This document shows positions 6,851 to 52,232 of a stretch of 64,000 nucleotides of DNA, piece after piece. Made by a program: the position numbers and the translations under genes. Position 1 is the first letter of the stretch. Every line of letters begins with the position of its first letter. The notes beneath the pieces are model-generated. The model did no database searches and was not told the origin of the DNA. It worked only from the letters and a program-made list of their open reading frames with translations. This DNA is from Candidatus Spongiisociaceae bacterium (GTDB taxonomy: Bacteria > Actinomycetota > Acidimicrobiia > Spongiisociales > Spongiisociaceae): contig CBDCOH010000002.1 of the NCBI GenBank assembly GCA_965219685.1, positions 3,936,001-4,000,000 of the forward strand, given 5' to 3'.

Positions 6851-6855
6851 TGTTC

Positions 6856-16896: not shown

Positions 16897-16915
16897 CTCA
16901 TCAGGCGTCCCGCCG

Positions 16916-27180: not shown

Positions 27181-27184
27181 TGCG

Positions 27185-28557
27185 TCCACACCGCTCTCAG
27201 TGAGCGATAGAACATGTCGCGATGCCCTGATTGTTCCGCCCGTCGAGACCAGGTTCAGTACTGCGATTGCCTTGACAAGTCGGTCTTCCGCTGGGGTGAG
27301 ACCATGGGAATCTCGGATCCGGACGGCTATTTCGGTCCAGCGGCTTGAGTGCTGTGCACCGATGCCGTTTGAAACGAAGTAGTCATAGACTGTCGCGAGG
27401 CCAACGGACGGCAGATGAGCCCCAGCCTGCCACTCGTGGGAGGTTAGGAACGATGAAGCGCTTCTGGAGTCAGGCCCTGCGAGGAACGAGAAGAGCGTCC
27501 TTTCGTGTTGCCCGTAGCGGCTGCACAACTCGGGGAGGACGAGAGCGGACAGAGGATGCAGGGGGTAGCAGGCAGCTATCCCTTGCGGTGTTGCTAGGTC
27601 ACCAACGCCAAGTGACCGTATCGCTTCGACATACCGCCCAGCCCACTGGTCAATCCGTTCTCGCAGCCTTGGGTCCGTGATCTCGAAAACGGTTCGAATG
27701 AGAGCGCGGGTTTGTGCTGGGGACTCAACAAAGGCTATGTCCTCGAACCGACCCTGGACCTTGGCCCACTCCCGACGCTGCGGTATGTCAGCGCCTCCGA
27801 GGTAGTCCTCGAAGGAGAGGTGCTGGAGCGTCAGCACGAAGATAGGAAGGCCAGCGGTGCTTTGGCCGGCCTCTGCCAACTGTTGGAGTAAGTATGGGTC
27901 AGCGTCAACGCCGTCGCGGAACGCTTCGAGGTTCTTACCGAACTCGTCGATGATCAACAGCAGCGGGGACTCTTCAGCAAGGCACCTGGCAATCTCGATG
28001 AGTGCTACGGGTGACGGACCGGACCGACGGGGGTCGTTGTCGGCGACATCTTCCAACGCTCCCCGGAGAGCGTCAGCAGCGGCGAAAGCTCCGCTTGAGG
28101 GGATCTCGCCGAATCTACGGAGAACGGCTGTGTGGAGTGCCCGAAGGATGGTGTGGCTGAGCGGTTCGCGCTCCGCGGTTACCAGTCCGCTAGAGAATCC
28201 TGACCTGTTGGTTTCGTAACGTTGATGGGCTTCACGCACCAGATTCCCCACAGCTGGGGATGTTTTGCCAACCAGGTCCAGCGCTAGGTGGCGGGTATCG
28301 GGAGGAGTGTTCCCGAACGCTGCGTCGAGGAGGAGCGCAAGCGATGACTTCCCTGATCCGTAGGGACCGGTAAGCGACCACGCCCCACCAGCCGGACCAG
28401 AGGCGGCGGCATGAGCGATCCTCTCTACTACGTCGAGGGCACGAGCGGTTACAACATATCCTTCAAGTGGCTCCGCACGCGTCGCGTCGCGCACCAGGTT
28501 GGCTGACCGAGCGAACCGCCCCGTCACAGCAACGCTTCCGGTCAGGGAAGGCATCAT
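27185..28557 (-). pseudogene. sspC: SspC-like P-loop ATPase, C-terminally truncated
   Basis: RFARSANL.RD, LTGPYGSGKSS, LIIDEFGK, EWAKVQGRF, CYPLHP, QHERTLFSFL; runs into TolB sequence after about 457 aa. Confidence 0.75.
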
Positions 28558-29621
28558 CGCCCGCCCATCGCCACGGGGGTACGACCGTACAGTTTGCGCA
28601 TCGCTTCGCTCGGGTTACGTCCGAGGCCCAATTCTTCCAAGAGATCGTCATCCACGGGTTGGTCCCCGTGATGGCCTGCCCGCACAACCGGCGGTTCAGC
28701 TTGGTAGTAATCGTTTAGTACTTCGACAGCGATCCGAGTCGGATCGGCACGCCACGACAGTTGCGAGACTCCGGTCGGTGTGATGAGGTCAACAGTGTCG
28801 GACCTTTCTAAGACAGGTTCCAAAGCCTGCTGAAGCTCGGCTTCTGTGAGCTTGAACACCCTTCCGGGTGCGCCCGATTCGTACGCCAACCGGCTCAGCG
28901 TCACTGTGTTACCACTAGTGCCGGTCCGGGCGACGTAGTCAAGCGCCGTGTAGCAGACAACCGCCGATGGCAGGCTGGGTTTTGGGCCGAGCGTGAATCG
29001 GAACCGTCCGGTAGCTTCTGAAACTTCGATCAGGTTCAGTTCCCGCAGCGGGCAATCCAAGATGTCGTCGATGCTTGTACGGGCCGAGCGTACCGGCGGA
29101 CCATAGGTCCGCAACAAGGCTCGCACGTCCTTCTTCCGAGATGTAGGATGCGGCATCTTCCAAGACGACACAGCCTCGAGGTGGGTTTCGATAGCCAGGT
29201 CGAGGTCAGCATCTTCGAACTCGACTGCGTCGAAGTTGTTGAACGCCAGCCACCAGACCGGCAATCTCGAGGGCGGTGCCATCAACAGCCAGTGCAAGAG
29301 CCACAACGTTCCCGGATCCTCCATGAAGCGATCCCATCCCATCTCCCCGAACAGGGCATGACCCATACGAGTAGGTATGATGCCGGGCGAGCGCCGGTTC
29401 GGTGCCTTCGGGTCCTCGACCAACAACTTGGCCGCGAGACCCCAGAAACGAATCGACCGAACCATGTTCTTGCCCACCCCGATCAGCACAGGCGCTTCAT
29501 GCTGACTGAACACAGCCGGATCCCTCGCCGCCGAAGCGTACGCCTTGCGGAACCACCCGTAACGAGGGTGGAACGTCTCATGACGAGCGAACATAGGCAG
29601 GGCTGCGTCAACAAGCCGCAT
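28554..29621 (-). CDS. sspB: DUF4007 protein (SspB-like nicking endonuclease)
   Basis: FARHETFHPRYGWFRKAY, GVGKNMVRSIRFW, D.FMEDPGTLWLLHW. Confidence 0.85.
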   Translation of the reverse strand: MRLVDAALPMFARHETFHPRYGWFRKAYASAARDPAVFSQHEAPVLIGVGKNMVRSIRFWGLAAKLLVEDPKAPNRRSPGIIPTRMGHALFGEMGWDRFMEDPGTLWLLHWLLMAPPSRLPVWWLAFNNFDAVEFEDADLDLAIETHLEAVSSWKMPHPTSRKKDVRALLRTYGPPVRSARTSIDDILDCPLRELNLIEVSEATGRFRFTLGPKPSLPSAVVCYTALDYVARTGTSGNTVTLSRLAYESGAPGRVFKLTEAELQQALEPVLERSDTVDLITPTGVSQLSWRADPTRIAVEVLNDYYQAEPPVVRAGHHGDQPVDDDLLEELGLGRNPSEAMRKLYGRTPVAMGGR

Positions 29622-30795
29622 CGATGTCCTCTCCGTAGGTCATACGACGAACATACGACACGGCAGTGACAGTCCTCTCAACCGCTGCATCGATGTCGTC
29701 GGGGGTCGTGAACCGGCCCAGGCTATACCTGATCGACTCGAACGCTGCGTCACGGTCGAGGCCCATCGCCACGAGCACCCCGGACGGTTCGATCGAACCA
29801 GAGCTACAAGCACTACCCGCCGACACCGCCACCGGGTCCATATTCACCAGGACAGCATCCGCGTCGGCACCTGCGAATCGTATGTTCGTGGTGTTCGGTA
29901 GTCGGCGTGTGGTGTCCCCGTTCTCATACATCTCTGGAACACGTTGCTGGAGAACACGTACTAGCCGATCTCGAAGCTGGCAGACCCGGCTGGATTCCTC
30001 GACGTGTTCGTCCGAGGCGATACGGGCCGCTGCGCCGAACCCCACCACCCCCGCAACGTTGATCGAACCTGACCGTAGCCCACGCTCGTGACCGCCGCCA
30101 TGGATGAGTGGGCACAAGCGTTCCATGCCACGACGTGTCCCGACCAGCGCACCCACCCCACCCGGACCGCAGATCTTGTGGCCGCTGAACGAAACCAGAT
30201 CCGCTCCGACAACGTCGAGCTCGAAACCGAGACGTCCCACCAACTGCGTTATGTCGCAGTGGAACAAGCCACCATATCGATGGACCTGTTCAGCGATCCC
30301 CGCCACCGGGTTCAACACGCCCGTCTCGCTGTTCGCTGCCACCGCGCATACCAGGAGCACATCCGGCCCCATCATGTCCCCCACCACGTCCGGATCCACG
30401 AAGCCTCCAGCGGTAACAGGAATCATTTCGACTTTCGCCAGGCCCTGTGCAGCCATCCAGCGCGCTGGTTCAAGAACCGACGCGTGTTCAGCCTCCGACA
30501 CCAGCACCCGTGACCGGCTGTCCTCCTTCCCTTCGACAATTCCGCGCAGGACGAGGTTGTTCGCCTCGGTCGCCCCGGCCGTGAACACCACCCGACCAGC
30601 CCTACCACCAACCAAGCCAGCGACCTGATCCCGTGCCTCCCGAACCATGGCAGCCTGGCGCCGCCCAAAACGATGCGCTGACGAGGCATTTCCCAAGCCT
30701 CCAACAAGGAGCGGCATCATCGCGTCGAGGACCCGCGGATCGAGCGGTCCGGATCCGTTGTAGTCGAGATACACCTCGGTCACAATGTGCTCCAC
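29608..30795 (-). CDS. Cysteine desulfurase (IscS/SspA/DndA-like)
   Basis: VYLDYN, SGHK PLP lysine, GGGHERGLRSG, SAGSACSS catalytic Cys; coupled to DUF4007. Confidence 0.93.
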   Translation of the reverse strand: MEHIVTEVYLDYNGSGPLDPRVLDAMMPLLVGGLGNASSAHRFGRRQAAMVREARDQVAGLVGGRAGRVVFTAGATEANNLVLRGIVEGKEDSRSRVLVSEAEHASVLEPARWMAAQGLAKVEMIPVTAGGFVDPDVVGDMMGPDVLLVCAVAANSETGVLNPVAGIAEQVHRYGGLFHCDITQLVGRLGFELDVVGADLVSFSGHKICGPGGVGALVGTRRGMERLCPLIHGGGHERGLRSGSINVAGVVGFGAAARIASDEHVEESSRVCQLRDRLVRVLQQRVPEMYENGDTTRRLPNTTNIRFAGADADAVLVNMDPVAVSAGSACSSGSIEPSGVLVAMGLDRDAAFESIRYSLGRFTTPDDIDAAVERTVTAVSYVRRMTYGEDIDAAC

Positions 30796-31018: not shown

Positions 31019-32203
31019 TCAGAGCCTGTTTGGGTTGGATGACCACGGGCCTATGAACTGGAGGACTCCCTCCAGTTGCTCAACCAGCCTGTCGTAGGTC
31101 TGCATCCTGATCCGCTCCTTCTCGTGAAGCTCGCGGCGTAAGGCCCTCGCCGCGGGTCGGAGCTTCCCCCGCCGCCCGATCAGCACGACCGCTTCAGCCC
31201 GTAGTTCGATATCGGGAAGGCAGATCCCTGTGTCAGGGTCCAAGTCCCGCGCCTGGTGAAGGTTGGCTCCAATCCATCGCCGCCAATCGTTAATCTGTTC
31301 GACGCCCTTACGAGCGTAAGAGTCGAACTGGTTGGTCTTCTTCAGGGTCACACGGGAGTGGGGGGTCTCGAGTTCCACCAATATCCAGCGGATACCGTTC
31401 GAGTCAATATCTGCAAGCAGGAAGTCAGCGACGTAACGGCCGCCGAAGCGGACCTTCGGACGACAGTACCGCGACGGGCCTCGGACGAGTGAGGCCAGCA
31501 GCTGCGGGCGACGCTCGAGCAGCTCCTGGATCGGTTTCTCGCTGTCGGCCTCGTCAAGAACGTGGCGCAGCTCCTCTATGTCCTCCGCGCTTGCTTCTTG
31601 GGTCACGGCGTAGGGCTCCAGGGCTGCCAACTTTGCCCGTGAGACCGTCGAGGTAGCTGACCGCTCCGCCGCGCGGTTCCTGGCCAGTTTCCGCGCTCGA
31701 GCGCTTCTCTCCGATGTGTCGCCGTGTCGGGCAACCATGGTCAGCTGGTCGGGCCACGCCTGCGCGCCGCGCCCGCCGGCGAAGTACACCTTCCCGTCGT
31801 CCCCGATCGAGGACACCACTTCGTACTGGTCGTTGGATGAGTGCCATGACACAACATCGCCCGTCGCCAGACGGAGTTCACTAAGCCGATGCATCCGGTC
31901 CGCTAACAGGAAGAACTGTATCCATGCGTGGGCTTCTCCGTAGCTGTCAACCGTGGGTGTTGCAACAGACGCCGCCTTAGCCAGGTCCACCAGCCACTCG
32001 TGCTGCCCATTGCTGATTCCATTCGGAACAACCCCGAGGCGGATGTCCACAGCCGTACGCACCCGAGCTTCAGCCACCACCCGCGGCAAGGTCCTGGGAA
32101 TCTCGACTCCTACAACTCCCGCAAACGTCCGCAGATCGTCGTCACAGTCCCCAATCATGCGGCGTATCGCCTTTACCGCACCCTCCCAACTGGAGTGGAC
32201 CAT
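31019..32203 (-). CDS. sduA: Shedu-type (DUF4263) nuclease with about 200-aa N-terminal domain
   Basis: SEKPIQELLE...ADFLL...LVELETP...GVEQINDWRRW...LIGRR...QTYDRL; RBS GGGAGG before ATG 32203. Confidence 0.82.
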   Translation of the reverse strand: MVHSSWEGAVKAIRRMIGDCDDDLRTFAGVVGVEIPRTLPRVVAEARVRTAVDIRLGVVPNGISNGQHEWLVDLAKAASVATPTVDSYGEAHAWIQFFLLADRMHRLSELRLATGDVVSWHSSNDQYEVVSSIGDDGKVYFAGGRGAQAWPDQLTMVARHGDTSERSARARKLARNRAAERSATSTVSRAKLAALEPYAVTQEASAEDIEELRHVLDEADSEKPIQELLERRPQLLASLVRGPSRYCRPKVRFGGRYVADFLLADIDSNGIRWILVELETPHSRVTLKKTNQFDSYARKGVEQINDWRRWIGANLHQARDLDPDTGICLPDIELRAEAVVLIGRRGKLRPAARALRRELHEKERIRMQTYDRLVEQLEGVLQFIGPWSSNPNRL

Positions 32204-32238
32204 CAAACCCTCCCGAGTAGAACGACCAGTAAGACTTT

Positions 32239-32634
32239 CTACCGCCGCCGACCACCGAAGGCTGAGATGAGGACGATGATCCCGACCGCCACCAACAGAA
32301 CCCAGGTCAAGACACGTAGTATCTGAATGAGGACGGGAGCCAGTGCGATGACCGTCAAGAACATGCCACCCAGCACCGGAGCGATAGCACCGCCCTCGTA
32401 CCCATGGCTGGCATTCACCCACGCCCGCCACAAGAACGCGCCGGAGAACGCGGCCAAAGCGACCATGAGGACAGCCAGTTGCCAACCCCCGGGAAACGTC
32501 AGCAGGTCACGGGCAAAAACCCAATCCCACCGGTGCTGAGACCACCACACAAGCGACAGCAGCGCGTTGACACCTGAGAGCACTAACCCGACTCGGGCGG
32601 CCAAGTTCCGAGGTGTTGACACATAGAAAGTCAA
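32239..32634 (-). CDS. Small 3-4 TM membrane protein
   Basis: Hydrophobic helices, basic C-terminus; co-oriented just upstream of Shedu. Confidence 0.6.
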   Translation of the reverse strand: MTFYVSTPRNLAARVGLVLSGVNALLSLVWWSQHRWDWVFARDLLTFPGGWQLAVLMVALAAFSGAFLWRAWVNASHGYEGGAIAPVLGGMFLTVIALAPVLIQILRVLTWVLLVAVGIIVLISAFGGRRR

Positions 32635-32912: not shown

Positions 32913-33856
32913 TCAGAAGAGGACAGCCTGTTCCGGGCGCGAGCCTCCCTCGTCCTCGGATAGAGGGCCGTCGAGGATGTTCCGGAGTTGGGATACGGCG
33001 GTGATGGGGGCGGCCCCCATGCCAGCGAGAGCTTCGTTTCCGGGGCCCTCGTCGAGGCCTCGCCAGACGGCCACCTGGCAGTACCGGCCCTTCAATGCTT
33101 CCGTTGCCCCTGACTACGTGCCGCCCGAACCTTTGTCGGCCGCTACCGCTACGGTCACATCTGAGAGGGCGTAGATGAGCTTGTTGCGGCCCATCGCCTT
33201 GCCGACCGAGAACGGGGAGTCCGGTGCGTGAGGTGTACAGATGACTGTCCGGTCGTCGTGAACGGCTCGGCGGACGCCCGGGGATCTCAGGGTCCGGGAG
33301 AGCGAGTGGGCCGGGACGCCGATCACGGTTCTCCCCGCCTCGAAAGCCGCGTTCATGGCCAGTTGATCCACCCTCGCGCTGCACCCGAGATGAGCGGTAC
33401 ATCCAGCGAAGCGGCTTGCCTGCCGAGCGCTGCGGCGACTCGGGCGCCCTCGTCGCTCACGTTGCGGCTCCCCACGACTCCGACACCTCCTTCGTCGAGG
33501 AGTTCCAGGGCCCCGGCGGCGTGGAGTATCGCCGGCGCCTTCCGTCCGAGGTTGGTGCGGAGCTGCTGCGGGTAGGAGTCGCCGAACGGTGTGGGCGTGG
33601 CTATCCCGGACTGGTCGAGCCGCTCCAAGTCGAAGGCCATTGCGGTAGCCCTCGCCAGCAGGCCGGCCACCCGGCCCGTCATGTCCGCTGCCAACCCGGA
33701 GCCCGCTAGATCGTCCTCGGTCATATCGAGAAGACCGGCCGGGTTACCGACTGCATCGACCAGCTTCCAGACCTGTAGAGCCGTGAGCGGTCTGGTTCCG
33801 TCGCTCGCCATCCGGCTCACGAGGAGGATGGCGGCCAGCGCGTCGTCGCTCCTCAT
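32913..33856 (-). pseudogene. DprA/Smf-like protein (PsyrA/RqlI-like), disrupted
   Basis: YP..L...LG..AP, GVVGSR, ISGAARG|VD, AMGRNKLIYAL, GGT*SGA.EAL; frameshift near 33372, TAG at 33114. Confidence 0.85.
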
Positions 33857-34049
33857 CGCACCGACCTCCCCGCCGTACTGGCCAGAGAGCAAAAGGATAC
33901 ACCGGGCCGTATCCGGCCTCCTGGAGCAACCCACCGATCACCGTCATCCTCCAGCGCTAGTCCACGATGTCATCCACCAGCAACACGGTGCCGGCCTCGT
34001 CGGTGAGGCGGCGGAGCAGTACAAGGGCCTCCTGTCCGATCTCATGCAT
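33853..34049 (-). pseudogene. Internally deleted RecQ-PRTase (PsyrT/RqlH-like), copy A
   Basis: MHEIGQEALVLLRRLTDEAGTV (same start as the RecQ at 37351) joined directly to the PRTase tail LLVDDIVD*RW.MTV.G.LL.EAG.GPVYPFAL. Confidence 0.75.
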
Positions 34050-34223: not shown

Positions 34224-34626
34224 GATTTCACCAGTGGTCATGACAGGGGCCCCGGGGGCTCCGGGGAGAGTTCAGGCAGGTTGAGGAGCTCACCCGACGT
34301 ACACACACTCACCTGCCCTTTGACCTCGACTGCTCCCCCAAGGGGCCAGTCGATGGATCTCTGCCCAATCATGCAAATCGCCGGACGCGAGCGCAACACT
34401 CGCGCAACAGTAAGTTCCAGGCCCGTCCAGCGATCCCGGCCCACGGTAGCGATCACCGAAAGCGGCCGCTGTTATCACGACCGTGGCTTTGGTCATGTGT
34501 TGCGGGGTGGCAGGTGCGTGCCCTGGGAACTGCTGGGTGGCCGAGTGGTCTAGGTCGTCACCGATTCCACCAACTGCCCGCCACCGTGCTTATAATATTT
34601 TTCTATGTCGTTGCTTATATTTTTCC

Positions 34627-35247
34627 ATGCTTGAGGTCGGGACTGAAGGCCACTTCCGGGAGGCTCTCAGCCAGGGGGACCGTGCCGCCGTTTTACTCGT
34701 GGCTCTGGAGGTTGCAACCGAGCAGGCCCACGACGCCGCCCTGGACTGGGGATTCATCCTGCCGCGGACTGAACCGGTCGTCGCGTTCGACTTCGCTGTT
34801 ACTCTCATGGAACCCTTCGAGCAGTCTGATGGCGTAGAGCGGAAGGAATCGAAAGGCCAGTATCTTTGGATCGTTGACACTCTCTACGGCCTTCGAGTGA
34901 AGAAACTGGACCATAACTACCGATCATCGAACCACTATTCTCAGCAGCAGGAGTTGATCAGCCAGCAGAAACCCTTGCCTGGCTTCCCTGACCTCGTTTA
35001 CGTTACGGTGGGAGCTGTCCACGATTCATCCGACCTCGTCACCGGATTCGCGGCAGTTAAGTACTTGGCGGGACCGATGGGCACGCAGAGAGTCGAATGG
35101 GTCGTTGACCTGCGTGACCTCGCCGCGGGCGGGACGGTCCCCACAGTTCCAGTCTTGCCTATAGAACCGGCAGCGCCTGTGGCACCGGCGGTCTTGTTAC
35201 CGAAGAGGGTTCCCGACCGTATGCGGGAAGGCGATCAGCGGGAGTGA
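34627..35247 (+). CDS. Hypothetical protein, putative toxin partner of XRE-IrrE
   Basis: 206-aa ORF after TATAAT (34591); stop 4 nt before the XRE-IrrE start. Confidence 0.7.
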   Translation: MLEVGTEGHFREALSQGDRAAVLLVALEVATEQAHDAALDWGFILPRTEPVVAFDFAVTLMEPFEQSDGVERKESKGQYLWIVDTLYGLRVKKLDHNYRSSNHYSQQQELISQQKPLPGFPDLVYVTVGAVHDSSDLVTGFAAVKYLAGPMGTQRVEWVVDLRDLAAGGTVPTVPVLPIEPAAPVAPAVLLPKRVPDRMREGDQRE

Positions 35248-35251
35248 TCCG

Positions 35252-36391
35252 GTGGAACCAAGGCTGATCACTCTCGCCAGGGTCGGTTCCGGACTTACGC
35301 AGATTCATCTGGCGAAGAAGCTCGGGGTTAGTCAGTCCTTCATCTCACAAGTGGAGCACGGAGAACGGAACCTTCCCACAGCTTTATTTCCGGGTTTCTG
35401 TGAAGCGTGCGACGTTCCCAGCTCGTTCCTGCGGAGCGGCCGACTCCCTCCAGACGATTCGGTCGCAGCAATGGTACATCGGAAGATGAATACTCTCCCG
35501 GCAAAACCTTACAATCTCGCGAACGCTCAGGTCAAGATGCGTGTTCTTGAAATAGACGCACTGTTCACCGAGATAGACGTCATAGCATCACTCCAGATGC
35601 CACATGTTCCGGCAGGGATTGGACCTATTGACGCGGCGGCCCTTCTACGCCGTGCTTGGCGTGTTCCTTCCGGGCCCCTGCCGAACCTTGTCGATCTTGT
35701 GGAGAGCGCCGGCGTTCCTGTGGTCCTCATGGACTGCTTCCACCCAAAGCAGTCCGCAACCGCGCATAGAGGCACATGGGTCGAGTGGATGATCGCACTC
35801 AATAGCTCACACCCGGCCAGCCGATTACGCTTCACGTTGGCGCACGAAGTCGGTCATATCATCATGCGACATGAGGCAACCACACCACTGGACCCGTACG
35901 CAGGTGCTTCGATCGAGAAACAGGCTGATATGTTCGGCGCTGAACTACTGATGCCGACAGCAGACGCCCGGCGTGAGCTCCGCACTGTGACTTTCAAACG
36001 GCTTGTCTTTCTTAAGCAGCGGTGGAAGGTCTCGGTCGCGTTTCTCATTCGCCGTGCTCTAGAGGTCGGGAGAATCCTACCTGAGCAGCGAACACGCTAT
36101 GAGATCGAACTCAGTACACAGCCCGGCGGTCGGAGACGAGAGCCCGCGGAGTTCGAGCCTGAAACGCCGACCCTCATCCGAAGAATGATCAACACACTCG
36201 GACAGACCGGTATGTCGAAGGAACAGATAGCTGATCTTGTTGGTATGACCGAAGAGCGACTTCGGACTGTCTACCTGCGTGAACCGTGCCGGCCTCGGCT
36301 TCTACCCAGCAGAGATACAGACCGTGTAGTGGTCGAGTTACCACCCCCGGCCTTCAGAGGGCAGTCTCCGAGTACCTCCTCCAGTGCGTAA
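35252..36391 (+). CDS. XRE HTH + ImmA/IrrE (DUF955) Zn metallopeptidase (RmrA-like)
   Basis: LTQIHLAKKLGVSQSFISQVEHG; RFTLAHEVGH (HExxH); EKQADMFGAELLMP. Confidence 0.92.
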   Translation: MEPRLITLARVGSGLTQIHLAKKLGVSQSFISQVEHGERNLPTALFPGFCEACDVPSSFLRSGRLPPDDSVAAMVHRKMNTLPAKPYNLANAQVKMRVLEIDALFTEIDVIASLQMPHVPAGIGPIDAAALLRRAWRVPSGPLPNLVDLVESAGVPVVLMDCFHPKQSATAHRGTWVEWMIALNSSHPASRLRFTLAHEVGHIIMRHEATTPLDPYAGASIEKQADMFGAELLMPTADARRELRTVTFKRLVFLKQRWKVSVAFLIRRALEVGRILPEQRTRYEIELSTQPGGRRREPAEFEPETPTLIRRMINTLGQTGMSKEQIADLVGMTEERLRTVYLREPCRPRLLPSRDTDRVVVELPPPAFRGQSPSTSSSA

Positions 36392-36597
36392 CTGTCGAGC
36401 TACGTGTTAACAGCGAACGTCGGTGAGGGCGTTGAGGAGTCTGTCAGTGCCTGAGCACACCGAATAGGATCGGCAGCCCGCACGTCACCGTGGCATTGTG
36501 ACCCACCAACTAACATGTGTCGCAGAGGGCTGACTTGACATCTATCTAACTCGCAGGCGGAGAACACTCTCACGGGGTACGAATCGCCCTTCCGATT

Positions 36598-37351
36598 CAG
36601 GCAGTAGATGACACCCGTGCCTTCGAGGCGGGGGACGACCTGTGCGAGCCAGGCCATGCGCTCTCGCGGTGAAGGCATCGGGAGCACATGGAGCCGCAGG
36701 CCCTCGCGGCCCAGAGGACCTCGAAGCGGCACGAGCCCGGAACCGAGCTGGTCCCGGATGTCCTCCACGACGCGGTCGTTGGCAGCAGTGGCGGTGCAAC
36801 AGAGTACGGGCACGCCCCGGGGCAGCAGATCCAGAACCCTGACGATGCGGCGGTAGTCGGGACGGAAATCGTGCCCCCAGTCGGAGATGCAGTGAGCCTC
36901 GTCCACGACTAGCAGGCCGCTGCGCCGACCTACCTCGGGCAGCACTTCGGTGCGGAACTTCTGGTTGGCGAGCCGTTCGGGGGAGATCAGCAGAAGGTCG
37001 ACCCGCCCGGCTTCGACGCCCTCCTCCACCTCCTCCCATTCGTCTCGGTTGGCGCTGTTTGATGGTGGCGGCTCGCACCCCCATGCCTTCCGCCGCCTCG
37101 ATCTGGTTGCGCATCAGCGCCAGAAGCGGCGAGACCAGCAGCGTCGGCCCCGCCCCCTGATCGCGCAGCAGCCGGGTGGCGATGAAATACACGGCGCTCT
37201 TCCCCCACCCGGTCCGCTGTACGAGAAGTACTCTCTGGCGGTTTTGCACCAGTGCCTGGATCGCCTCCAGCTGGTGCGGACGGAACACGGCGCCGGCCTT
37301 GCCGGTTAGCCGGCCGAGTAGCGCCAGTGCCTCCTGTTCGATCTCATGCAT
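36598..37351 (-). pseudogene. RecQ-like helicase (PsyrT/RqlH-like), copy B, 5' half
   Basis: QRTGWGKS, SPLLALMRNQ, DEAHCISDWGHDFRPDY, TAT, G.IYCL then breaks off; +1 frameshift near 37058. Confidence 0.88.
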
Positions 37352-37689
37352 GCCGAGCCCCGTGCATTGCGTTCGGGTCAAGGTAGCCGTCGCCTGCGAT
37401 ATGATCGTGCGGAGCCTTGGCCCGATGGCCGGTTGCCACATTCTCCGCAATAGGCTCCCGGAGTTCGCCCGCCACGACGGACTCCGCAACGGCGGCAGCC
37501 CATGGACGGCGTCCGTGATCGTCGGCTCACCCGTCGCGTATTTTGGAAGCGATCACATCGTTGTCCGCTGTGCGGAACCGGCGCACGATGGCATGGTCGT
37601 GGTCCGCGGCCTGGTGGAGACGGTGGACTCCGAGGAACGGGTACCGGGTGCTACATCCGTGCCAGGGCGGTTCCGGTCCTGGCTATCCC

Positions 37690-37830
37690 GGGGCTTCGCG
37701 ATACCGGGGCGGCACACCGGCCGGTCGGCTGTAGCGTGGGTGCGGCTATGACCTCGTCCAGGTCATCCCGTCCGACTGCTTGGTATCGGCCCGTAGCCGT
37801 TCCCGAAGATCTGGACGCCACGGGGGCATG
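37690..37830 (+). repeat. Direct repeat of 40965-41105 (5' fragment of antitoxin gene)
   Basis: MTSSRSSRPTAWYRPVAVPEDLDA versus MSPSRSSRPTARYRSVAVPDDVDA, with upstream DNA also conserved. Confidence 0.85.
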
Positions 37831-37957
37831 AGAGTTTGTACCGAGGCTGCTTGTGGCTGTCTGAGATAGCCACGACGTCCATTAAGCAAGGATCAGGGTC
37901 CGTGATACGGACACGTTTCTTTTCCGACTATTGGGATCCTGCGTTTGAGTGCTGACC

Positions 37958-38803
37958 TCACTTCCACTCTCCTGCCGCAGCAGTATCCGGCTCTGTTATG
38001 CTTCTTGTTGTCTTGATCTTGGGATCTACCACGGACTTAATCGCACGATAGAACATCAGGATGACTATGAGTACGATATCGATAAGTGCCACGTTAACGG
38101 GAGACAATCTCGTACCGTATTCTCTGATCCACACAGCCATTATAATTGCGACAATAGTAAAGCCGACAGTTACCCATCTACGCTGGCCGTAGGCTCGCCG
38201 CCCTTGTCGCCGCCTGAAGTACTCTCCCCTTAGTGCTTTCTGGGCGTTGTCATCTGAAGACAGCCTGTAGCTGACTATATCCCAAAGTGTGTAGAGCATG
38301 AAAGACAGGCATACCAGGTAGACTTCTGGCCGAGCATCGGCCTCAGATAAGGACGCCTCTGCTACCCTTATCAACAAGAAATACACGAACACCATTGCCA
38401 CGTCAAGTAAGAACTGTATGAAAGGCTTATTGAAGAACCTCACCCGCAGCTTGGGCAGATTGACACTTGTATAGTATCCAATCGCGCTCGTGACCGTAAG
38501 TGCTGTTGCTACGAATAAGTGCGTCAATGTAACGTAACGGCTACCTAGTACCTCTGTCACCCGGGCTCGACTCAGAATATCACTCTCGTATCGAGAGTCA
38601 GATACCGATGAAGTAGGTAGCTCTCGAAAAATAGGCAGTAGTTGGTCAGCCACTTCGATCGCCAGCTGGCCAATGACAAGGGCGAAGAGAAACCCAGTAA
38701 CCGCCACACCTGTCTGTGTCTTTGCCCTCTCTGGCTGGACACAAAAACAGCGAGAATACCAGATACAAGCATGGTGTTTGATGACACGCATCTGGTGTTT
38801 CAT
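37958..38803 (-). CDS. Multi-pass (about 6 TM) membrane protein of unknown function, low GC
   Basis: 281-aa ORF; ATG 4 nt after the HAD stop. Confidence 0.8.
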   Translation of the reverse strand: MKHQMRVIKHHACIWYSRCFCVQPERAKTQTGVAVTGFLFALVIGQLAIEVADQLLPIFRELPTSSVSDSRYESDILSRARVTEVLGSRYVTLTHLFVATALTVTSAIGYYTSVNLPKLRVRFFNKPFIQFLLDVAMVFVYFLLIRVAEASLSEADARPEVYLVCLSFMLYTLWDIVSYRLSSDDNAQKALRGEYFRRRQGRRAYGQRRWVTVGFTIVAIIMAVWIREYGTRLSPVNVALIDIVLIVILMFYRAIKSVVDPKIKTTRSITEPDTAAAGEWK

Positions 38804-38807
38804 GTTA

Positions 38808-39506
38808 TCACCCTGAGGACGCGAGCCTCTCCAGAGCACAGGGCAGGTGATCCAATGATGTCAGCCGGATAACTCCCTTAGGCACGTTCAGGTGTATACG
38901 GCTCTCATACTGCCAAGTTGGCCTTTCGATCCAGACTGCCTGCAGACCACATTCTATGGCAGGCATGATATCCCACTCTATACTATTACCAACCGAAACG
39001 GCTACTGACGATGACACAGACAGTAAATCGCACATGGCACGAAAGGATGCGGCGGTCTTTCGCTCGACAATTGCTATAGCACGGAAGTGTTCAACAAGTC
39101 CTGACTGGCGAATCCGTTCGTGTTGGATGTTACGGTCGCCTTTCGTGAGCAATCCCAAGTGATAGTTTACATGTAACGCAGACAGCACTTCGTGGACGTG
39201 CGGAATAAGTTCTGCCTTATTTTGGAAAACGGCTATGCTCAAGCGATAAATCCGCTTCTCGGCCTCCGCATCGTAATGAGGCGCGAGCAGACGGAAAGCT
39301 ATTACCGAAGACGTTGGGAATCTCTGCGGGGCAAACCCAAGCTGTGTGACTCGCTCAAGGTCAATCTCTCGCTGGAGTTTTCTCCACAGATGCCCATCGA
39401 GTCCCCGTCGCTCGACTTCACGTTGCGCGTCATCAAGTGCCCTCTCATAGAGAGTCTCTGTTCTCCACAATGTATCGTCGGCATCAAAAATGATGGCACG
39501 TGTCAT
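38808..39506 (-). CDS. HAD-superfamily hydrolase, low GC
   Basis: IFDADDTLW (I), LLTKGD (II), K (III), VGNSIEWDI (IV). Confidence 0.92.
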   Translation of the reverse strand: MTRAIIFDADDTLWRTETLYERALDDAQREVERRGLDGHLWRKLQREIDLERVTQLGFAPQRFPTSSVIAFRLLAPHYDAEAEKRIYRLSIAVFQNKAELIPHVHEVLSALHVNYHLGLLTKGDRNIQHERIRQSGLVEHFRAIAIVERKTAASFRAMCDLLSVSSSVAVSVGNSIEWDIMPAIECGLQAVWIERPTWQYESRIHLNVPKGVIRLTSLDHLPCALERLASSG

Positions 39507-40470
39507 ATTTCGTTCCCTTACCCTTCGGAGGGTACTAGCGGGGCGGGTTGTGACCTCGATCGTAGCGGCAACACCGTGTGGCTGGGCGACTCGTGGATTT
39601 TGGGGCTTGTACTGGTCGGCGTGGGGTCACGTTACGGGATGCCGAGGGCTGCGTAGTTGTTGGGGTTGATGAATCCGCGGGCGACGCGTTGCAGGAGGTT
39701 GTTGATGCCATCGATTGGTTCGTTGGCGGCTCGTCTGCGAGCGGTAGGTCCGAGGGCGCGTGGAGATGTCGTCTTATGCTTCTCACGGTGCGAAGAGGCT
39801 CCAAGCGGGCTTGCTGGAGCGTTCGAACCAGAGGCCTATTGCGTTGTGGTGGGCATCTGGTGCTGCCAGATGATGCCGTTACCGCCTCGTCATCGGCCGA
39901 GGCTCGCGGAGTCCTGGTGCCCCCTTGATGACATTGCTAGGTCGATCTTGCGGGGGAGAGGGTGTTGCAGGGGCCGTGGTCGGCTTCCGATAAGTGTGGT
40001 GTCGGTTGGCCTGCCGCGAACGCGTCGCAGGCGCCGGTCGTGTCCACCGGTCGATGTCCGTCCGGGCCGGAATGTGGGTCACGTCGGTAGCTGTGGTGAC
40101 CACGCCCCCAACGTGGCCGAGCTTCACGGCGGCGATCCGATTCCGAGCGCCGGCCGCTACGTAGTCCCGGGCCGCTTGCTCGTGGTCCGGCCCGGCTAGG
40201 CGTCGCTCTCCAGTGCGCTGGGGAGGAAGGCGGTGCAATCTGCTGTGAGGTCGGTGTGGGCATCCGGGTCGGTCGCTTGAGCCTGCAGCTGGGCCATTAA
40301 CAACGTCTTGATCATCGTGCCGGGGAGGGCGCCGCTGGCCTGACGTCGTCGATGCCGACGCGCAGGGTGCCTCCGAGCGGTGAGCGACTGCTGATAGTGG
40401 CGGGACGAGGACACTTATCGCGACCTGTGATCAGCCGGATCCCAGGGCGACACGCCGCCTCCGACGGGAG

Positions 40471-40815
40471 TTACCGAGCAGAGAGTTCGAGTTCAACGTA
40501 TCGGGAGAAGTCACGTCCTGAATGAAGGTCTCTAAAGCGACTTATGTCTATTTCAAGATCGATAACATCCTTGTCTGATCGATATCTGAAGGCATCACCT
40601 TCTAGAGCACCTGGCGGGCACTTCAGCCAGATCAAGCTGCCGTCCTCCCTTTTGAGGACAATGTGCAGGCCCCTGCCAACTATCTTCCGAGGTATGTGTA
40701 GCCACCAGACTGGCTTTGATTTGTTGACGTTAGCGAAACGGGTGTTCTGATGGTTCAGCAACGTATGGCGGATATGAGAATTGATGCGTCCTATTGCATC
40801 CTGTTTGTCTGGCAC
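40471..40815 (-). CDS. Hypothetical protein, low GC
   Basis: 114-aa ORF with globular composition in an AT-richer patch. Confidence 0.55.
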   Translation of the reverse strand: MPDKQDAIGRINSHIRHTLLNHQNTRFANVNKSKPVWWLHIPRKIVGRGLHIVLKREDGSLIWLKCPPGALEGDAFRYRSDKDVIDLEIDISRFRDLHSGRDFSRYVELELSAR

Positions 40816-41022
40816 CGTGGGTCGCAGCCTTCCTAGTTCGGTCGTAGCTTGTTAACTCAGAGTACTGCTGGGGGCGGCCGTCTTATGCCGTCGGGCGCCG
40901 AACAGGCACCGTCTTCCTGCCGTGCTGGCCCGAGCAGGAGATACACCGGCCAGCAGGCTCTCCCCGAGCTTCGGGATGCCGTGGGGGCACACCGGCCTGC
41001 CAGCGGTAGCATGGGTGCGGCC

Positions 41023-41349
41023 ATGAGTCCGTCTAGGTCATCCCGTCCGACTGCCCGGTACCGGTCCGTAGCCGTTCCCGACGATGTCGACGCCCCGGGG
41101 GCGGTCAAAGCGAGCGGGAGGGCCGTGTTGCCGTTCCATGTCCGTTGGAGTGGTGATCGGGTGTACGACCTCGACGACGAGGCGGATCGCAAGTCGGTGT
41201 ACAGGCAGGTTTTGTCACATGGCCTTGCCGAGGATGTCCGCCGGTTCATACGGGTTCAGGAGCTTGCCCGTCTGTGGGACCGGATGGTGCTGCCGTCGTA
41301 TGTGAGGGATGTGCGGGGACCATGGCTACGCCGGCGCGGTCTCATATAG
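41023..41349 (+). CDS. Small protein resembling antitoxins of actinobacterial nucleotidyltransferase TA pairs (partner absent)
   Basis: LPFHVRWSG...YDLDD...VY.QVL.HG...DVRRFI...L..LW..MVLP..VR. Confidence 0.65.
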   Translation: MSPSRSSRPTARYRSVAVPDDVDAPGAVKASGRAVLPFHVRWSGDRVYDLDDEADRKSVYRQVLSHGLAEDVRRFIRVQELARLWDRMVLPSYVRDVRGPWLRRRGLI

Positions 41350-41361
41350 AGGAGCGACGCG

Positions 41362-41660
41362 GCGCCCTGGATCACTTGGCTCTCGGCAGGAAGTGGCCTC
41401 CGAAGCTGTCCAAGGCCCTCTGCCCGACCCGCTCACTCAAGACTCTGATGGCTTAGGGGTCCGGGACTCGGGTGATCCACCGCGTCGAGAACCTCTTCGG
41501 CCTAATGCCCAACCACCGTTGCACCATGTGGATGGGGAGGACTTTCCCGAGGTGGCCCGCCTCTACCTGCGGGCGGATGCTCTGTTCGTAATCTCTTTGC
41601 CCAAGCGGCTTTCATGCCTGGGGGCGGGGGGAAGGTGCCTTCGTATCCGGTTGCCGCATG
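41362..41660 (-). pseudogene. Degraded paralog of the 50705-50995 small gene plus first codons of its protease partner
   Basis: Shares CGAAGCTGTCCAAGGCCCT.TGCCCGACCCGCTCACTCAA, GCGTCGAGAACCTCT, CTGCGGGCGGATG and CCCTGGATCAC. Confidence 0.8.
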
Positions 41661-41718
41661 CTTCCCGCTTCCGAGGCGGCTGACGTATCCGTGCTCTCTG
41701 GCCAGGATGCTCCGGGTA

Positions 41719-41735
41719 GTTACAGTCCTGGTAAC
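41719..41735. promoter_or_regulatory. Inverted repeat GTTAC-N7-GTAAC, putative operator
   Basis: Ends 9 nt before ATG 41745. Confidence 0.5.
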
Positions 41736-41744
41736 ATTCTGGGT

Positions 41745-42539
41745 ATGGCAAGCGGCGAGGTCTTTCCGAACGCCCCGTTGGCGCTCGTGGTGGCCGAGGT
41801 ACGTTACCCGCCCGTTTCCGACGGCGCCCTCGCCATGCCGGTCTACCGCCGTATCAGGAACCTGCTCGGCAGCGGCTGGGTGATACACAATGCCACTGAA
41901 CAGACCTTCGAGGCTGGAGTGGACGCGGATGGGCCGCGGGCTTCCTTGAGGTCAGAGAAGTACAGCCGGATCACGTCGAGGCAAAGAACACGGATCATCA
42001 CGGCCAAGCCCTCGAACTTCACAGTCGAGGTCGTGGACTACTCGGGCTTCCCCGACTTTCGCGATCTACTCGTGCGGGCCGGGCAAGCCGTCGAGAACGT
42101 ATTGCATCCCGAAGGGGTCGTTCGGGTCGGGCTCCGGTATATCAACGAGATTTCCGTGCCTGACCAGGTACCCGACTGGGGTGCCTGGCTTCATCCGTCC
42201 CTCATCGCGCCGGAACCGCCTCGCGAGTTGACCCTGACCGAATGGACGGGAACAGCGCGCTATCAAATGGCTTCGGATCGGTTCCTGGTCCTGCGTTACG
42301 GACCGTCGGTCGGACCGGTGGTATCACCAGAGGGTCCGCTGAGGCGTTCCCGTCTGCCCGAGGGACCGATCTTCGTGCTGGATTTCGATAGTTTCTGGCA
42401 ACCCGACGACATCCCGGAGTTCACGAGCGAACGGATAGGCAAGGTTGCCGACCGACTGCACCGCCCGCTGCGAGGTCTGTTCGACCACTTGTGCCAACCG
42501 AACCTGCAAGACGTCTTCAGAAAGGACCTGTTGCTATGA
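41745..42539 (+). CDS. TIGR04255 family protein
   Basis: FPNAPLALVVAEVRY, RVGLRYINEI, FVLDFD. Confidence 0.85.
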   Translation: MASGEVFPNAPLALVVAEVRYPPVSDGALAMPVYRRIRNLLGSGWVIHNATEQTFEAGVDADGPRASLRSEKYSRITSRQRTRIITAKPSNFTVEVVDYSGFPDFRDLLVRAGQAVENVLHPEGVVRVGLRYINEISVPDQVPDWGAWLHPSLIAPEPPRELTLTEWTGTARYQMASDRFLVLRYGPSVGPVVSPEGPLRRSRLPEGPIFVLDFDSFWQPDDIPEFTSERIGKVADRLHRPLRGLFDHLCQPNLQDVFRKDLLL

Positions 42540-43189
42540 CCGTACAGACGGCCCTTTACGACGAGCCTACGGAAGCGACAGCCCTCGCCCCGCTTCGCAT
42601 CGTGGAGAGAACCCGGCCATCTGACGTTGACATCCTGGCTAACGAGGTGGGGGCTCTGCGGTCCGATGTCGGCCTTCTTTCCGAGGATGTCGCACGAGTC
42701 CATGGTGATTCGCTGCGGCTCCAGCTTGACTATCGCGCCGACACCGTCGCCAAGAGGTCGCCTGTGCGCCTGCTCGACGAGCTCGCTCATTGGGGGTTCT
42801 CCTGGACTTCGGTCGCGCGGGTCCTGGGCGTGTCGATCCCTGCTGTTCGGAAATGGCGCCAGGGGAATCCTCTGTCCGGCGAGAACCGGCGGAACCTCGC
42901 CCGGTTGGTGGCCTTCGTGGACCTGCTCCACGAGGACTATCTGATCAGCGATGGCGCATCATGGTTGGACATGCACCTGGCCGAGTCGAGCTTTACCGGA
43001 ATCGACGTTATGGCTGCCGGACACGCCCACGAACTGATGCAGTATGCAGCCGGGCACATCAGCTCTCGGGATCTCTTGGACGTCACCATCCCGACCTGGG
43101 GAGACACTCTGGACGATCGTTTCGAAGTCTATGTGGCGCCTGACGGAGAGCGCGCCATCCGGATGCGGGCTGAGGGCGAGAGGGGGTGA
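42536..43189 (+). CDS. Coiled-coil + XRE-like HTH protein (putative antitoxin/regulator)
   Basis: FSWTSVARVLGVSIPAVRKWRQG; ATGA overlap. Confidence 0.8.
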   Translation: MTVQTALYDEPTEATALAPLRIVERTRPSDVDILANEVGALRSDVGLLSEDVARVHGDSLRLQLDYRADTVAKRSPVRLLDELAHWGFSWTSVARVLGVSIPAVRKWRQGNPLSGENRRNLARLVAFVDLLHEDYLISDGASWLDMHLAESSFTGIDVMAAGHAHELMQYAAGHISSRDLLDVTIPTWGDTLDDRFEVYVAPDGERAIRMRAEGERG

Positions 43190-43860
43190 GCCTCGAGCCG
43201 GCTGCCGAACCGTTCCGGCTCTATACGGCTACCGGCCCCGAAGTCAGCATGTACCGTCCGCTCTTCACCGGAGATATCTTCTCCAATGTCGAGATTCCGG
43301 GCGTGGGCCGCTCGCCCGCCATCGTGATCGGGCATCCCTGCTCGTTCCGAGGCAGGAACGCCCAGCTCGCAGAACGCACACCCGTCGCCTCGGTAGAGCC
43401 TCATCAACCGGTGCCGGCGCAGCAGTGGTCGATGGGATACTTCAACCGGCTGCCCCTCCCGGGTTTGCCGCTGGAAGGATCGTTCCATGTCGCCTGGCTC
43501 GACCGATTCGGTCTGGCCCTCACCAGCGGCCTCACCGCGACAAGCCGCGTGGCGTGTCTTTCGCACGCCGGGATCAACCAGCTGCAACAAAGACTGGTCT
43601 TCCACCAGACCCGGCTTGACATCCCGACCGCGACATTCCACAAGGCCTTCGATCACACCTACGAAGAGGCGGAGCTCCTGGAAGATTGGGCTACGGAGCT
43701 CGGCAGTGCCGACGAATCCACCGTGGCAGCATTCGAGTCCTGGATCCGCGCGGGCGATCCCAACCTGCAATCCCTCTTGAGAGACCCGCAAGCGCGAGCA
43801 CACGTTCGACGCACGATGAGAGAGGAGATCAGCCGGAGGAAAGCGGACACCTGGCGATAA
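43186..43860 (+). CDS. Hypothetical protein with PemK/MazF-like pattern (putative toxin)
   Basis: TGDIF...AIVIGHPC...PVASV...RVACLS...LQQRLV.HQTR; GTGA overlap; fold call is inference. Confidence 0.7.
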   Translation: MSLEPAAEPFRLYTATGPEVSMYRPLFTGDIFSNVEIPGVGRSPAIVIGHPCSFRGRNAQLAERTPVASVEPHQPVPAQQWSMGYFNRLPLPGLPLEGSFHVAWLDRFGLALTSGLTATSRVACLSHAGINQLQQRLVFHQTRLDIPTATFHKAFDHTYEEAELLEDWATELGSADESTVAAFESWIRAGDPNLQSLLRDPQARAHVRRTMREEISRRKADTWR

Positions 43861-51009: not shown

Positions 51010-51603
51010 ACTGGGGCGGGGTATCTACGACGTGGCCGAGGTAGCCCGGATAGTCCGGAGGCACCCCGACACGGTCGCGCGTTGGACGCGGGGCACCGAT
51101 CCCCTGCACATGTGGAGAGTGACCGGATCATCTTCTTCCTCGACCTGATCAGCCTTTGGGTGATATCCGAGTTGATCAGGCGTGGCGTTCCGCGACCGGA
51201 GATCAGGGCAGGAGGGGAGTACGTGGCCGAGAACCTCGGTACGAGATACCCGTTCGCCCACCAGGATATGGCCACTGTGGGCGCCGGTTTCTTCGGCAGG
51301 TTCAAGGAATGGGTCGACGTGGGCAAGGGTGGTCAGGGGTCCTTCCCGGCGGTGATCGAAGAGTTGCTAAGTCCGATCGAATTCGGTCCCGACCTTCACG
51401 CATCCATCTGGCGGCCGGCGAAGGGCGTGTGGCTCAACCCCGAAGTCCAAGCAGGCGCACCGTGCCTTGATGGAACCCGGGTCCCCACAAGCGCGATAGC
51501 TGACCTCCAAGCCGCGGGCGACCACGTCGAGGACATCGCGGACGATCTGACCCTGAATATGGCACAGGTCCGCGCTGCCCTGCAGTATGAACTCGCTGCC
51601 TGA
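51010..51603 (+). pseudogene. HTH + DUF433 antitoxin, frameshifted and 5'-truncated
   Basis: GIYDVAEVARIV..HPDTV.RW | F.DLISL...NPEVQAGAPCLDGTRVP; shift near 51108. Confidence 0.75.
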
Positions 51604-52116
51604 AGGTCGAAGGCAACGCCGTAGACCTCCCGATCTCGTCTCCTATTCGATGAGAACCTTCCGTGGCGAGTAGCCAGCGCTCTGCGGGAACTCGGCTACA
51701 ACGTGAGTTATGTAGGGAATGAGCAAGACGGGACTCCTCCGCGGGGCTCCTCCGACCAGACGATCATCGACCAGGCCCGAACCACCAACCAGATAGTGGT
51801 CACGTCGAATCACGACATGATCCTGCTCTGCCTCGAACAACCGCAGCCGGTGATCTGGTTGGATCCGCACGGGCGCAAGATCACTCGGGATGAGATGGTC
51901 ATACTTGTGTTCCAAGCGGCACATATATGGGAAGAGATGTTGCAGAGCGCGATCGGACCGGTATGCATCCGGACCCTACGAACCAAGAACGAGAGATTGT
52001 CGGTCGAGCGCGCTGTCCACCTGGTGCGACAGCGTATGAGGCGGATTGCAGCTAGGAAGCGACGGGGACCAAAGCCCAAGCCACTCGGACCGCTGTTCGA
52101 CTCCACCTCCGGATGA
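51587..52116 (+). pseudogene. DUF5615/PIN-like toxin, frameshift near 5' end
   Basis: LLFDENLP...SDQTII...VVTSNHD; ATG 51587 out of frame by one base near 51636. Confidence 0.7.
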
Positions 52117-52232
52117 TCACCTGCGTATGGCGGGTAGGCCATGCCCTCTGTTCGGCGCTGGATGTGCGATCAATGTAAGCTTCGCGGCCCTAGATCTTGA
52201 ACTCGGTACGTGTCGGAACAGGAGACCACAGC

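Follow-up and report, generated by a model that had tools for sequence, protein, structure and literature searches.

Metis, the anti-phage system closest to the locus described here, joins a HAD phosphatase to a nucleotide-sensing effector. According to the available text of the Metis preprint (10.1101/2025.11.05.686725), the HAD phosphatase MisB dephosphorylates basal m6dAMP, so that the effector is set off only by phage degradation of the methylated host DNA; a catalytic MisB mutant keeps its defence and is toxic. The same text (10.1101/2025.11.05.686725) describes the effector of type II Metis, MisC, as a nucleotide-sensing transmembrane (TM) protein without an annotated domain, with three TM helices and a predicted octameric assembly, and its authors expect further types that sense methylated cytosine or carry their own DNA modifier. 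Here we analyze a HAD phosphatase gene and the adjoining gene of a six-TM membrane protein (hereafter the pair) in a 64,000-nt stretch of the genome of a Candidatus Spongiisociaceae bacterium (contig CBDCOH010000002.1, positions 3,936,001 to 4,000,000; hereafter the window).

The pair resembles type II Metis, as far as the preprint text goes: in both, a PF13419 HAD phosphatase with the two catalytic Asp residues shares an operon of two genes with a membrane protein that lacks an annotated domain. An initial annotation, made from the sequence alone, had seen in the two genes the sensor/effector logic of nucleotide-signalled abortive infection. Metis, a published system built from a HAD phosphatase and a nucleotide-sensing effector, follows the same logic in the portion of the preprint that we could consult, which gives that idea a precedent. 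The best explanation of our observations is that the HAD and membrane-protein genes form a conserved operon, a copy of which was acquired horizontally and landed in a defence island.

Conservation of the HAD-membrane protein pair

Both genes of the pair are read from the reverse strand, with the HAD gene first (Table 1). The longest frame of the membrane-protein gene extends over 37958-38839 (-). The closest homologues of the membrane protein start with MK(H/P)Q..., and the ATG at 38803 (MKHQ...) therefore fits as its start. A gap of 4 nt (38804-38807) then separates the HAD stop codon from this ATG, and a Shine-Dalgarno-like GGGTGA is found within the last HAD codons, ahead of the membrane-protein gene. 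The GC content is 0.518 in the HAD gene and 0.493 in the membrane-protein gene, against 0.642 in the window and 0.653 in the chromosome. The initial annotation had described two intact co-oriented genes, 4 nt apart and richer in AT than the host, and these frames and values bear it out. The six TM helices that it had assigned to the second protein were also recovered, both by hydropathy and in a structure model.

The close family of the membrane protein is small. A search of 5.8 billion clusters yielded six further proteins, and 185,579 species genomes held one locus, L002, in an Acidimicrobiales metagenome-assembled genome. In L002 a HAD 51% identical to that of the window is encoded 28 nt upstream of the membrane-protein gene. 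A profile search of 1.84 billion representatives gave a wider family, which numbers 471 representatives at E<=1e-3 and shrinks to 196 at <=1e-10 and to 34 at <=1e-30, where a representative stands for a cluster at 50%. The core shared by the wider family covers approximately profile positions 85-255. Among 401 sampled genomes of the phylum, this one included, three carry the wider family.

A scan of metagenomes with a narrow alignment found nothing. The metagenome loci described below come from a scan with another alignment, of 15 sequences, which gave 28 loci, or 23 distinct ones after the near-identical L035, L043, L044, L053 and L056 were dropped. Linkage to a HAD was scored by a six-frame scan of these loci with a hidden Markov model built from the 36 homologues of the window HAD. 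In 17 of the 23 distinct loci, three of them cut by a contig end, a HAD gene immediately precedes the membrane-protein gene on its strand. It is upstream and split off by a Mutator transposase in one (L046), and adjacent and convergent in another (L032). No HAD was found in L039, L049, L052 and L055, and in L055 the membrane-protein gene is truncated. The window, L002 and a further locus, L010, also have the HAD directly upstream on the same strand. When these three and L011, a more distant relative, are added to the 23, a HAD of the window's subfamily adjoins the membrane-protein gene in 22 of 27 distinct loci. This is the linkage on which the initial annotation had staked its reading. In several loci the start and stop of the two genes abut or overlap, and HAD matches and membrane-protein matches fall on contigs of the same size (4014, 3347 and 708123).

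Two of the loci from sampled genomes deserve mention. L010 (in genome G171, 6496-9633) encodes an EEP-family nuclease/phosphatase, a HAD, the membrane protein and a Mom-family protein in a string whose ends abut or overlap, and it may represent a self-contained form of the system with its own DNA modifier. L011 (in genome G178) holds its family member without a HAD, after a cytidine deaminase gene and beside a PIN/Phd pair; the deaminase may be a housekeeping neighbour and serves here as a lead only.

The neighbours of the metagenome loci were surveyed with Pfam in 86 of 119 listed open reading frames (ORFs), the remainder being the membrane ORFs themselves (27) and six from the duplicates L044 and L056. 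Phage-type integrases were found near the pair in L032, L038, L050 and L057, and directly next to it in the latter three. Other mobility genes were a TrwC relaxase (L042), a coupling protein together with the Mutator transposase (L046), and an IS66 transposase (L052). A mobility gene is thus present in the short flanks of 7 of the 23 distinct metagenome loci. Other adjacent genes encode a DNA methylase (L041), Lsr2 (L058), NUDIX and GntR proteins (L033), an NlpC/P60-SLT protein (L048), and an XRE protein and a multiubiquitin domain (L050). The window HAD itself had three matches in phage records and 19 in plasmid records, all at <=32% identity; the three plasmid records inspected (H8, H9 and H11) contain ordinary HADs without an annotated membrane partner. 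The best explanation of these neighbourhoods is that the pair is a conserved two-gene operon travelling on integrative and conjugative elements.

In the titles, abstracts and some passages of the literature on HAD anti-phage systems, prokaryotic TMEM175, Hydrolase-3Tm and Metis, no pairing of a HAD with a TMEM175-like protein of six helices was found. The pair is widely conserved and, within that literature, previously undescribed as a two-gene unit. The E. coli anti-T7 operon mentioned in the Metis preprint may, as we presume, be the 'Hydrolase-3TM' system.

The phosphatase and the membrane protein

HAD phosphatases have four catalytic motifs: I (DxD), II (T/S), III (K) and IV (an acidic pair). 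The window HAD exceeds the gathering cut-offs of PF00702 (47.2 bits vs 26.4) and PF13419 (42 bits vs 23.8), and its residues D8, D10, T121, K150, N174 and D179 do not vary across an alignment of 42 homologues. The first position of motif IV is the invariant N174 (GNSxxxD) and not Asp. Since the catalytic residues are invariant in these 42 homologues, we take the protein to be an active phosphatase. The same 42 sequences share W14, F63, Q128, W198 and E201 as invariant residues specific to the subfamily.

The best NCBIfam matches were TIGR02253 (77.4 vs 169.75) and YjjG (TIGR02254; 60.9 vs 159.9), both below cut-off. Like these HAD-IA nucleotidases, the window protein is a HAD-IA enzyme with a helical cap and has relatives with nucleotide-metabolism neighbours, but it forms a clade apart, with invariant residues not shared by them, and scores far below their cut-offs. 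The nearest solved structures are those of uncharacterized HADs from structural genomics.

The HAD subfamily is more frequent than the membrane protein and occurs in 21 of the 401 phylum genomes at E<=1e-25 (a tally that includes G148). Ten loci of sister HADs that are not linked to the membrane protein were viewed, with L076 (in G148) left aside. A PRK/uridine-kinase-family gene is adjacent in 4 of the 10 (L078, L080, L081 and L082, which come from a single family of the class), and in L079 the HAD adjoins a pseudouridine synthase gene; four other loci showed nothing telling. Because the sister HADs adjoin uridine-kinase-family genes, these neighbourhoods suggest that the substrate of the HAD is a nucleotide. 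The initial annotation had called the enzyme a HAD phosphatase that processes nucleotides; the Pfam assignment confirms the HAD phosphatase, and its relatives point to nucleotides.

A maximum-likelihood tree was built from 27 full-length HADs. In it a branch with support 100/99 separates the 18 HADs linked to the membrane protein from the 9 others, with a bootstrap that is not fully settled. The tree omits the partial HADs of L036, L037, L045 and L046, the duplicates and L076. Its membrane-linked rows were found via the membrane protein, so that their sampling is not neutral. We read this topology, with the sister neighbourhoods, as one origin of the pairing, probably from a nucleotide-handling HAD lineage. 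A predicted complex of the HAD with the membrane protein (score 0.00, mark 0.32) has no bearing either way.

The membrane protein had no Pfam match over cut-off, no NCBIfam match and no PADLOC match, and in the Atlas it matched unnamed clusters only. When 44 members of the wider family were scanned, no Pfam family was over its cut-off except for one C-terminal SHOCT domain. A sequence search of the PDB with the membrane-protein profile returned chance rows only (E >=0.29), and a fold search of BFVD gave nothing at E<=0.001. An AlphaFold2 model built from an alignment of 80 sequences has six helices, with a pLDDT of 92.5 and a pTM of 0.87; an earlier model from 8 sequences (pLDDT 56.7) was set aside. 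By the positive-inside rule, both termini would be cytoplasmic.

In the VIA fold search with this model the first match was 5vre_A (CmTMEM175), with a Z-score of 13.8, a root-mean-square deviation of 3.8 A and an alignment of 179 of 188 residues that covers model positions 27-258. The next row was a designed protein (Z 11.0); MtTMEM175 scored Z 8.2. Foldseek also placed 5vre_A first (E 0.03, TM-scores 0.27/0.35). The bacterial TMEM175 proteins (CmTMEM175, 5VRE; MtTMEM175, 6HD8; PF06736) consist, like the membrane protein, of a single repeat of six TM helices. They differ in that their helices 4-6 and cytoplasmic loops are poorly conserved, according to the available passages of PMC7176437, and these parts are strongly conserved in the family of the membrane protein. 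No match to PF06736 was found for the membrane protein or anywhere in the genome.

The wider family has the motif G-x-x-F-[VI]-D-x-LFALVVG at the start of helix 1, SW[IV]GYH at the end of helix 2, and a third helix that follows F-x-N. Its F[VI]D, W..GYH and Asn are in register with FSD, Trp74/His77 and Asn95 of TMEM175, whose FSD, Trp/His and Asn network holds helices 1-3 together (PMC7176437, in the passages available). Sequence profiles do not confirm kinship, but the shared register is suggestive. Asp occupies the helix-1 position in 48 of the 80 alignment rows, mostly as F-[VI]-D. Asp in helix 1 and His in helix 2 are both present in 43 rows and both missing in 26, with Asp alone in 5 and His alone in 6; as the rows are related, these counts do not amount to a statistical test. 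At the cytoplasmic ends of helices 2, 5 and 6 the motifs N-x-P...R-F-F-N, RR-x-VT and YR-x-x-K are conserved, and they may form a basic surface able to hold a phosphate-bearing ligand. Many further polar residues are conserved inside the helices and at their ends. The nearest relatives beyond the protein's own small group (P0006, P0007 and the L002 protein, 7974-9035) have an extra conserved C-terminal domain of ~100 aa (...LPRE...GRYV...), which is absent from the window protein.

The initial annotation had been reminded by helix 1 of TMEM175/LtrA-type channels. The TMEM175 half of this comparison was borne out by the best structural match, CmTMEM175 being first in both fold searches, though the profile comparison was not significant (probability 4-5%). 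The LtrA half did not. Its helix-1 motif of the ELFFDLVFVFA type is aligned by hhalign opposite F-V-D-x-LFALVV, but the Pfam model of LtrA (PF06772) has ~350 positions against ~170 in the conserved core of the membrane family. An hhalign comparison with 16 LtrA sequences gave a probability of 0.5%, and the genome contains no match to PF06772.

Defence island and mosaic interval

The initial annotation had placed the pair in a defence island, and PADLOC agreed by identifying SspA, SspB, SspC, SduA, RmrA and fragments of PsyrT and PsyrA (Table 1). SspABC, SduA, RmrA and the PsyrTA remnants all lie <=12 kb from the pair. The Ssp genes next door are of the DNA phosphorothioation type. PsyrTA, a system of a RecQ-like helicase and a DprA-like protein, is broken in two: the N-terminal 250 residues of PsyrT are present and the PsyrA fragment is 2.5 kb away, with the RmrA-like module between the two halves. 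No tRNA gene was found in the 64,000-nt window. The window also contains further small modules and a CYTH-CHAD protein gene, which are listed in the table.

Table 1. Features of the window, with the pair first and the others in order of position
Feature	Positions	Strand	Remarks
HAD-IA phosphatase gene, first of the pair	38808-39506	-	232 aa; frame intact
Six-TM membrane-protein gene, second of the pair	37958-38803	-	281 aa; frame intact
Phd/PIN module	16606-17344		small module
NYN-LOTUS protein gene	18539-19255		small module
Ssp genes, whole run	26845-30795	-	phosphorothioation type
SspC	26845-28557	-	PADLOC; profile positions 1-433 of 1104 only, probably truncated
SspB	28557-29621	-	PADLOC, 329 bits
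SspA	29611-30795	-	PADLOC, 397 bits
Shedu SduA homologue	31022-32485	-	488 aa; C-terminal DUF4263/SduA_C domain
PsyrA fragment	33353-33934	-	PADLOC
RmrA-like module	34483-36391	+	between the halves of PsyrTA
RmrA-like XRE-peptidase	35252-36391	+	PADLOC, 165 bits
PsyrT, two fragments in two frames	36403-37489	-	profile positions 3-99 and 109-252 of 689
Left repeat copy	37681-37827	+	truncated start of a small-gene homologue; frame stops at 37829-37831
ISL3-type insertion sequence, remnant of 3' end	39591-39738	-	148 nt; 85 nt upstream of the HAD start
orf114, second low-GC gene	40471-40815	-	114 aa, GC 0.49
Right repeat copy	40956-41102	+	~55 nt upstream and first ~30 codons of the intact small gene
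Co-oriented run	41011-43860	+	four genes
Intact small gene	41011-41349	+	112 codons/112 aa; open frame; precedes the TIGR04255 gene
TIGR04255 family gene	41658-42539	+	115.7 bits vs cut-off 30
DUF433/DUF5615 module	51082-52113		small module
CYTH-CHAD protein gene	52197-53960		

The pair lies between two direct repeats of 147 nt each, which are 83% identical without gaps (BLAST, E 1.8e-36) and have no further copy in the genome. The right copy belongs to an intact small gene and the left copy to a truncated homologue. Directly after the left copy, at the stop of its frame, the GC content drops from 0.62-0.67 to about 0.50. The initial annotation had reported two diverged copies of an antitoxin 5' region. 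The diverged direct copies are real, at coordinates ~9 nt to the left of those given there, but the label antitoxin has no family support. The protein of 112 aa had no Pfam or NCBIfam match, in PADLOC it matched DpdD alone, and weakly (E 0.0015), and in the Atlas it falls only into hypothetical actinobacterial clusters of ~113 aa. The TIGR04255 gene that follows is the only copy in the genome (tblastn). The genes of the 112-aa protein, of the TIGR04255 protein and of two further proteins, one of 232 aa that weakly matches a helix-turn-helix and one of 224 aa without a family, form a co-oriented run, which may be an undescribed module.

The interval between the repeats is not uniform. In addition to the pair, it contains ~700 nt of high-GC DNA without a convincing gene, the insertion sequence (IS) remnant and orf114. 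The latter has no Pfam, NCBIfam or PADLOC match; it has eight homologues, nearly all of 114 aa, with 59-78% identity and no Pfam domain. It abuts the upstream region of the gene of the 112-aa protein and may be separate foreign cargo. No recombinase or integrase is encoded between the repeats. The repeats are ruled out as attachment sites or a fresh target duplication by their low identity (83% of 147 nt), by the lack of a recombinase gene between them and by the mosaic of low- and high-GC pieces that makes up the interval. For the same reasons they are not supported as the cassette boundaries that the initial annotation had seen in them. We would instead read the left copy as what remains of a second, homologous module with a small gene, which the incoming low-GC DNA overwrote.

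The 148-nt remnant upstream of the HAD gene shares 76-78% identity with the ends of five further genomic sites. In four of these the transposase frame was read, and it ends in ...GINNLLQVLRRVAHGF.... Of the transposase, only the last 36 codons survive in the remnant, and they match an intact copy with 69% identity (tblastn, E 3e-8). We take ISL3 to be the name that belongs to this motif at the transposase end. Judged by its sequence, the remnant is derived from this ISL3-type element. An intact transposase frame of 408 codons is found at C2:2726524-2727747, with an identical second copy elsewhere and partial frames in at least two further places. At about 39520 the initial annotation had suspected the loss of an upstream component. 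This suspicion was not sustained, as the HAD gene is the first gene in homologous loci, where the upstream neighbours vary, and the site holds the remnant. A scan limited to sigma-70-type consensus sites found no promoter-like site between 39507 and 39600. Four sequencing runs contain the stretch; all are from one sample and probably represent the assembly's own data.

A possible Metis-like function and the alternatives

On this analysis we tentatively propose that the pair could be a Metis-like abortive-infection module, a reading that we hold as possible rather than probable. The HAD would be an active nucleotidase and, in the resting cell, would hold down the amount of a mononucleotide that serves as danger signal. 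The signal would most plausibly be a modified (deoxy)nucleotide that is released when a phage degrades the host DNA. The six-TM protein would be the effector; it would share the fold of the TMEM175 cation channels, which are tetramers, and present a conserved cytoplasmic face with positive charge. Once the signal builds up faster than the phosphatase removes it, the effector would open, or harm the membrane in another way, and so halt the infection. In this proposal we infer the nucleotide substrate, the oligomeric pore, the sensing of a ligand and the defence phenotype. The genome contains one PF00145 and seven PF01555 matches to DNA methyltransferases, which counts in favour of it. The narrower proposal of a further Metis-like class, in which a modified mononucleotide from degraded host DNA gates a channel of TMEM175 fold and the HAD nucleotidase acts as a noise filter, seems to us unlikely. 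Since the relatives of the HAD lean to pyrimidines, the signal would perhaps be a methylated pyrimidine nucleotide. Some versions may carry their own DNA modifier, as the Mom-family gene of L010 and the methylase gene of L041 would suggest.

Several observations weigh against the defence reading. Four of the 23 distinct metagenome loci and L011 have the membrane-protein gene without a HAD, and three of these genes look full length. They are therefore a poor fit to an effector that is toxic when unguarded. The neighbourhood of L002 is metabolic, with genes of a luciferase-like monooxygenase and of MFS and ABC proteins, and L047 has a kinase, a PhyH dioxygenase and a pirin as neighbours. Among viral contigs, 31 pattern matches to the membrane family were found and none was confirmed, and the family member P0068 had no match in phage and plasmid records. 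As to the fold, a Z-score of ~14 can be reached by helical bundles without kinship, as the search tool itself warns. An hhalign comparison with 17 TMEM175 sequences from genomes of the class was not significant (probability 4.7%, E 0.0086; 4.2% in a repeat). In the subfamily of the window protein, VTG (A-V-T-G in the window protein) and GYY replace the F[VI]D and GYH of the wider family. The ISL3 remnant, 85 nt upstream of the HAD gene, may have removed the promoter here, and none of the sequencing runs listed is an RNA run carrying the stretch. PADLOC models gave no match for either protein, even at E<=10.

The comparison with Metis has its own limits. MisC, as the preprint text describes it, has three helices and is predicted to form an octamer, whereas the window effector has six helices and a TMEM175-like fold, and the HAD gene comes first here. 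Because of the six against three TM helices, the window effector is by description not a homologue of MisC. The comparison of MisB with the window HAD is likewise one of descriptions only.

The pair may alternatively be metabolic cargo, in which a house-cleaning nucleotidase HAD and a membrane transporter of a nucleoside, another small solute or an ion serve detoxification or salvage and no immunity. The resemblance of the HAD to the YjjG/TIGR02253 house-cleaning nucleotidases would agree with this explanation, as would the housekeeping contexts of the sister HADs beside uridine-kinase-family genes. The polar residues conserved in the helices of the membrane protein and at their ends are transporter-like, the L002 pair stands amid MFS, ABC and monooxygenase genes, and the family member of L011 is found beside a cytidine deaminase gene. 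Metabolic cargo, however, would hardly be expected to be as sporadic as this family, to recur beside integrases, relaxases and transposases, or to appear with foreign GC content in a defence island, and the top structural match is a channel and no known transporter fold. We consider this explanation somewhat unlikely. A different proposal makes the pair a toxin-antidote or exclusion module of integrative elements, in which the HAD restrains a membrane toxin and the module stabilizes its element or blocks a second one without sensing phages. The tight coupling of the genes with the presumed antidote first, the integrase next to the pair in L038, L050 and L057 and nearby in L032, and the abundance of modules of toxin-antitoxin type in the window (RmrA, PsyrTA and PIN/Phd) are consistent with it, and in Metis, as far as the preprint text shows, the HAD acts as an antidote too. 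The three membrane-protein genes without a HAD that look full length speak against it, and the invariant catalytic residues argue for small-molecule enzymology over inhibition by binding. Such a module appears clearly unlikely to us.

Whatever its function elsewhere, the pair might be a silent hitch-hiker in this genome: foreign DNA within nested insertions, cut off from its promoter by an IS event and intact only through recent arrival. The remnant upstream of the HAD gene, the broken PsyrT, PsyrA and SspC genes, the truncated copy of the small gene and the missing promoter-like site are in favour of this account. Both frames, however, are intact and all residues invariant in the family are kept, and the promoter scan was limited to consensus sites of one type. 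We regard a silent pair as improbable, and we retain the Metis-like module as our tentative reading.

Should the defence reading be correct, the pair would add a new version to the Metis-type logic. HAD-guarded nucleotide danger sensing would then be joined to at least three unrelated effectors, namely an NAD-cleaving enzyme, a three-helix pore protein and a TMEM175-like channel, and Metis-type immunity would extend into Actinomycetota and soil metagenomes. A testable function would be given to a sizeable membrane family that has no Pfam or PADLOC entry. The role of prokaryotic TMEM175 is called unclear in the available passages of PMC7176437, and the pair would provide a hint at a first physiological role of this fold. 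Even if the defence reading fails, the strict pairing of the HAD with the membrane protein provides a handle for finding the substrate of both proteins.

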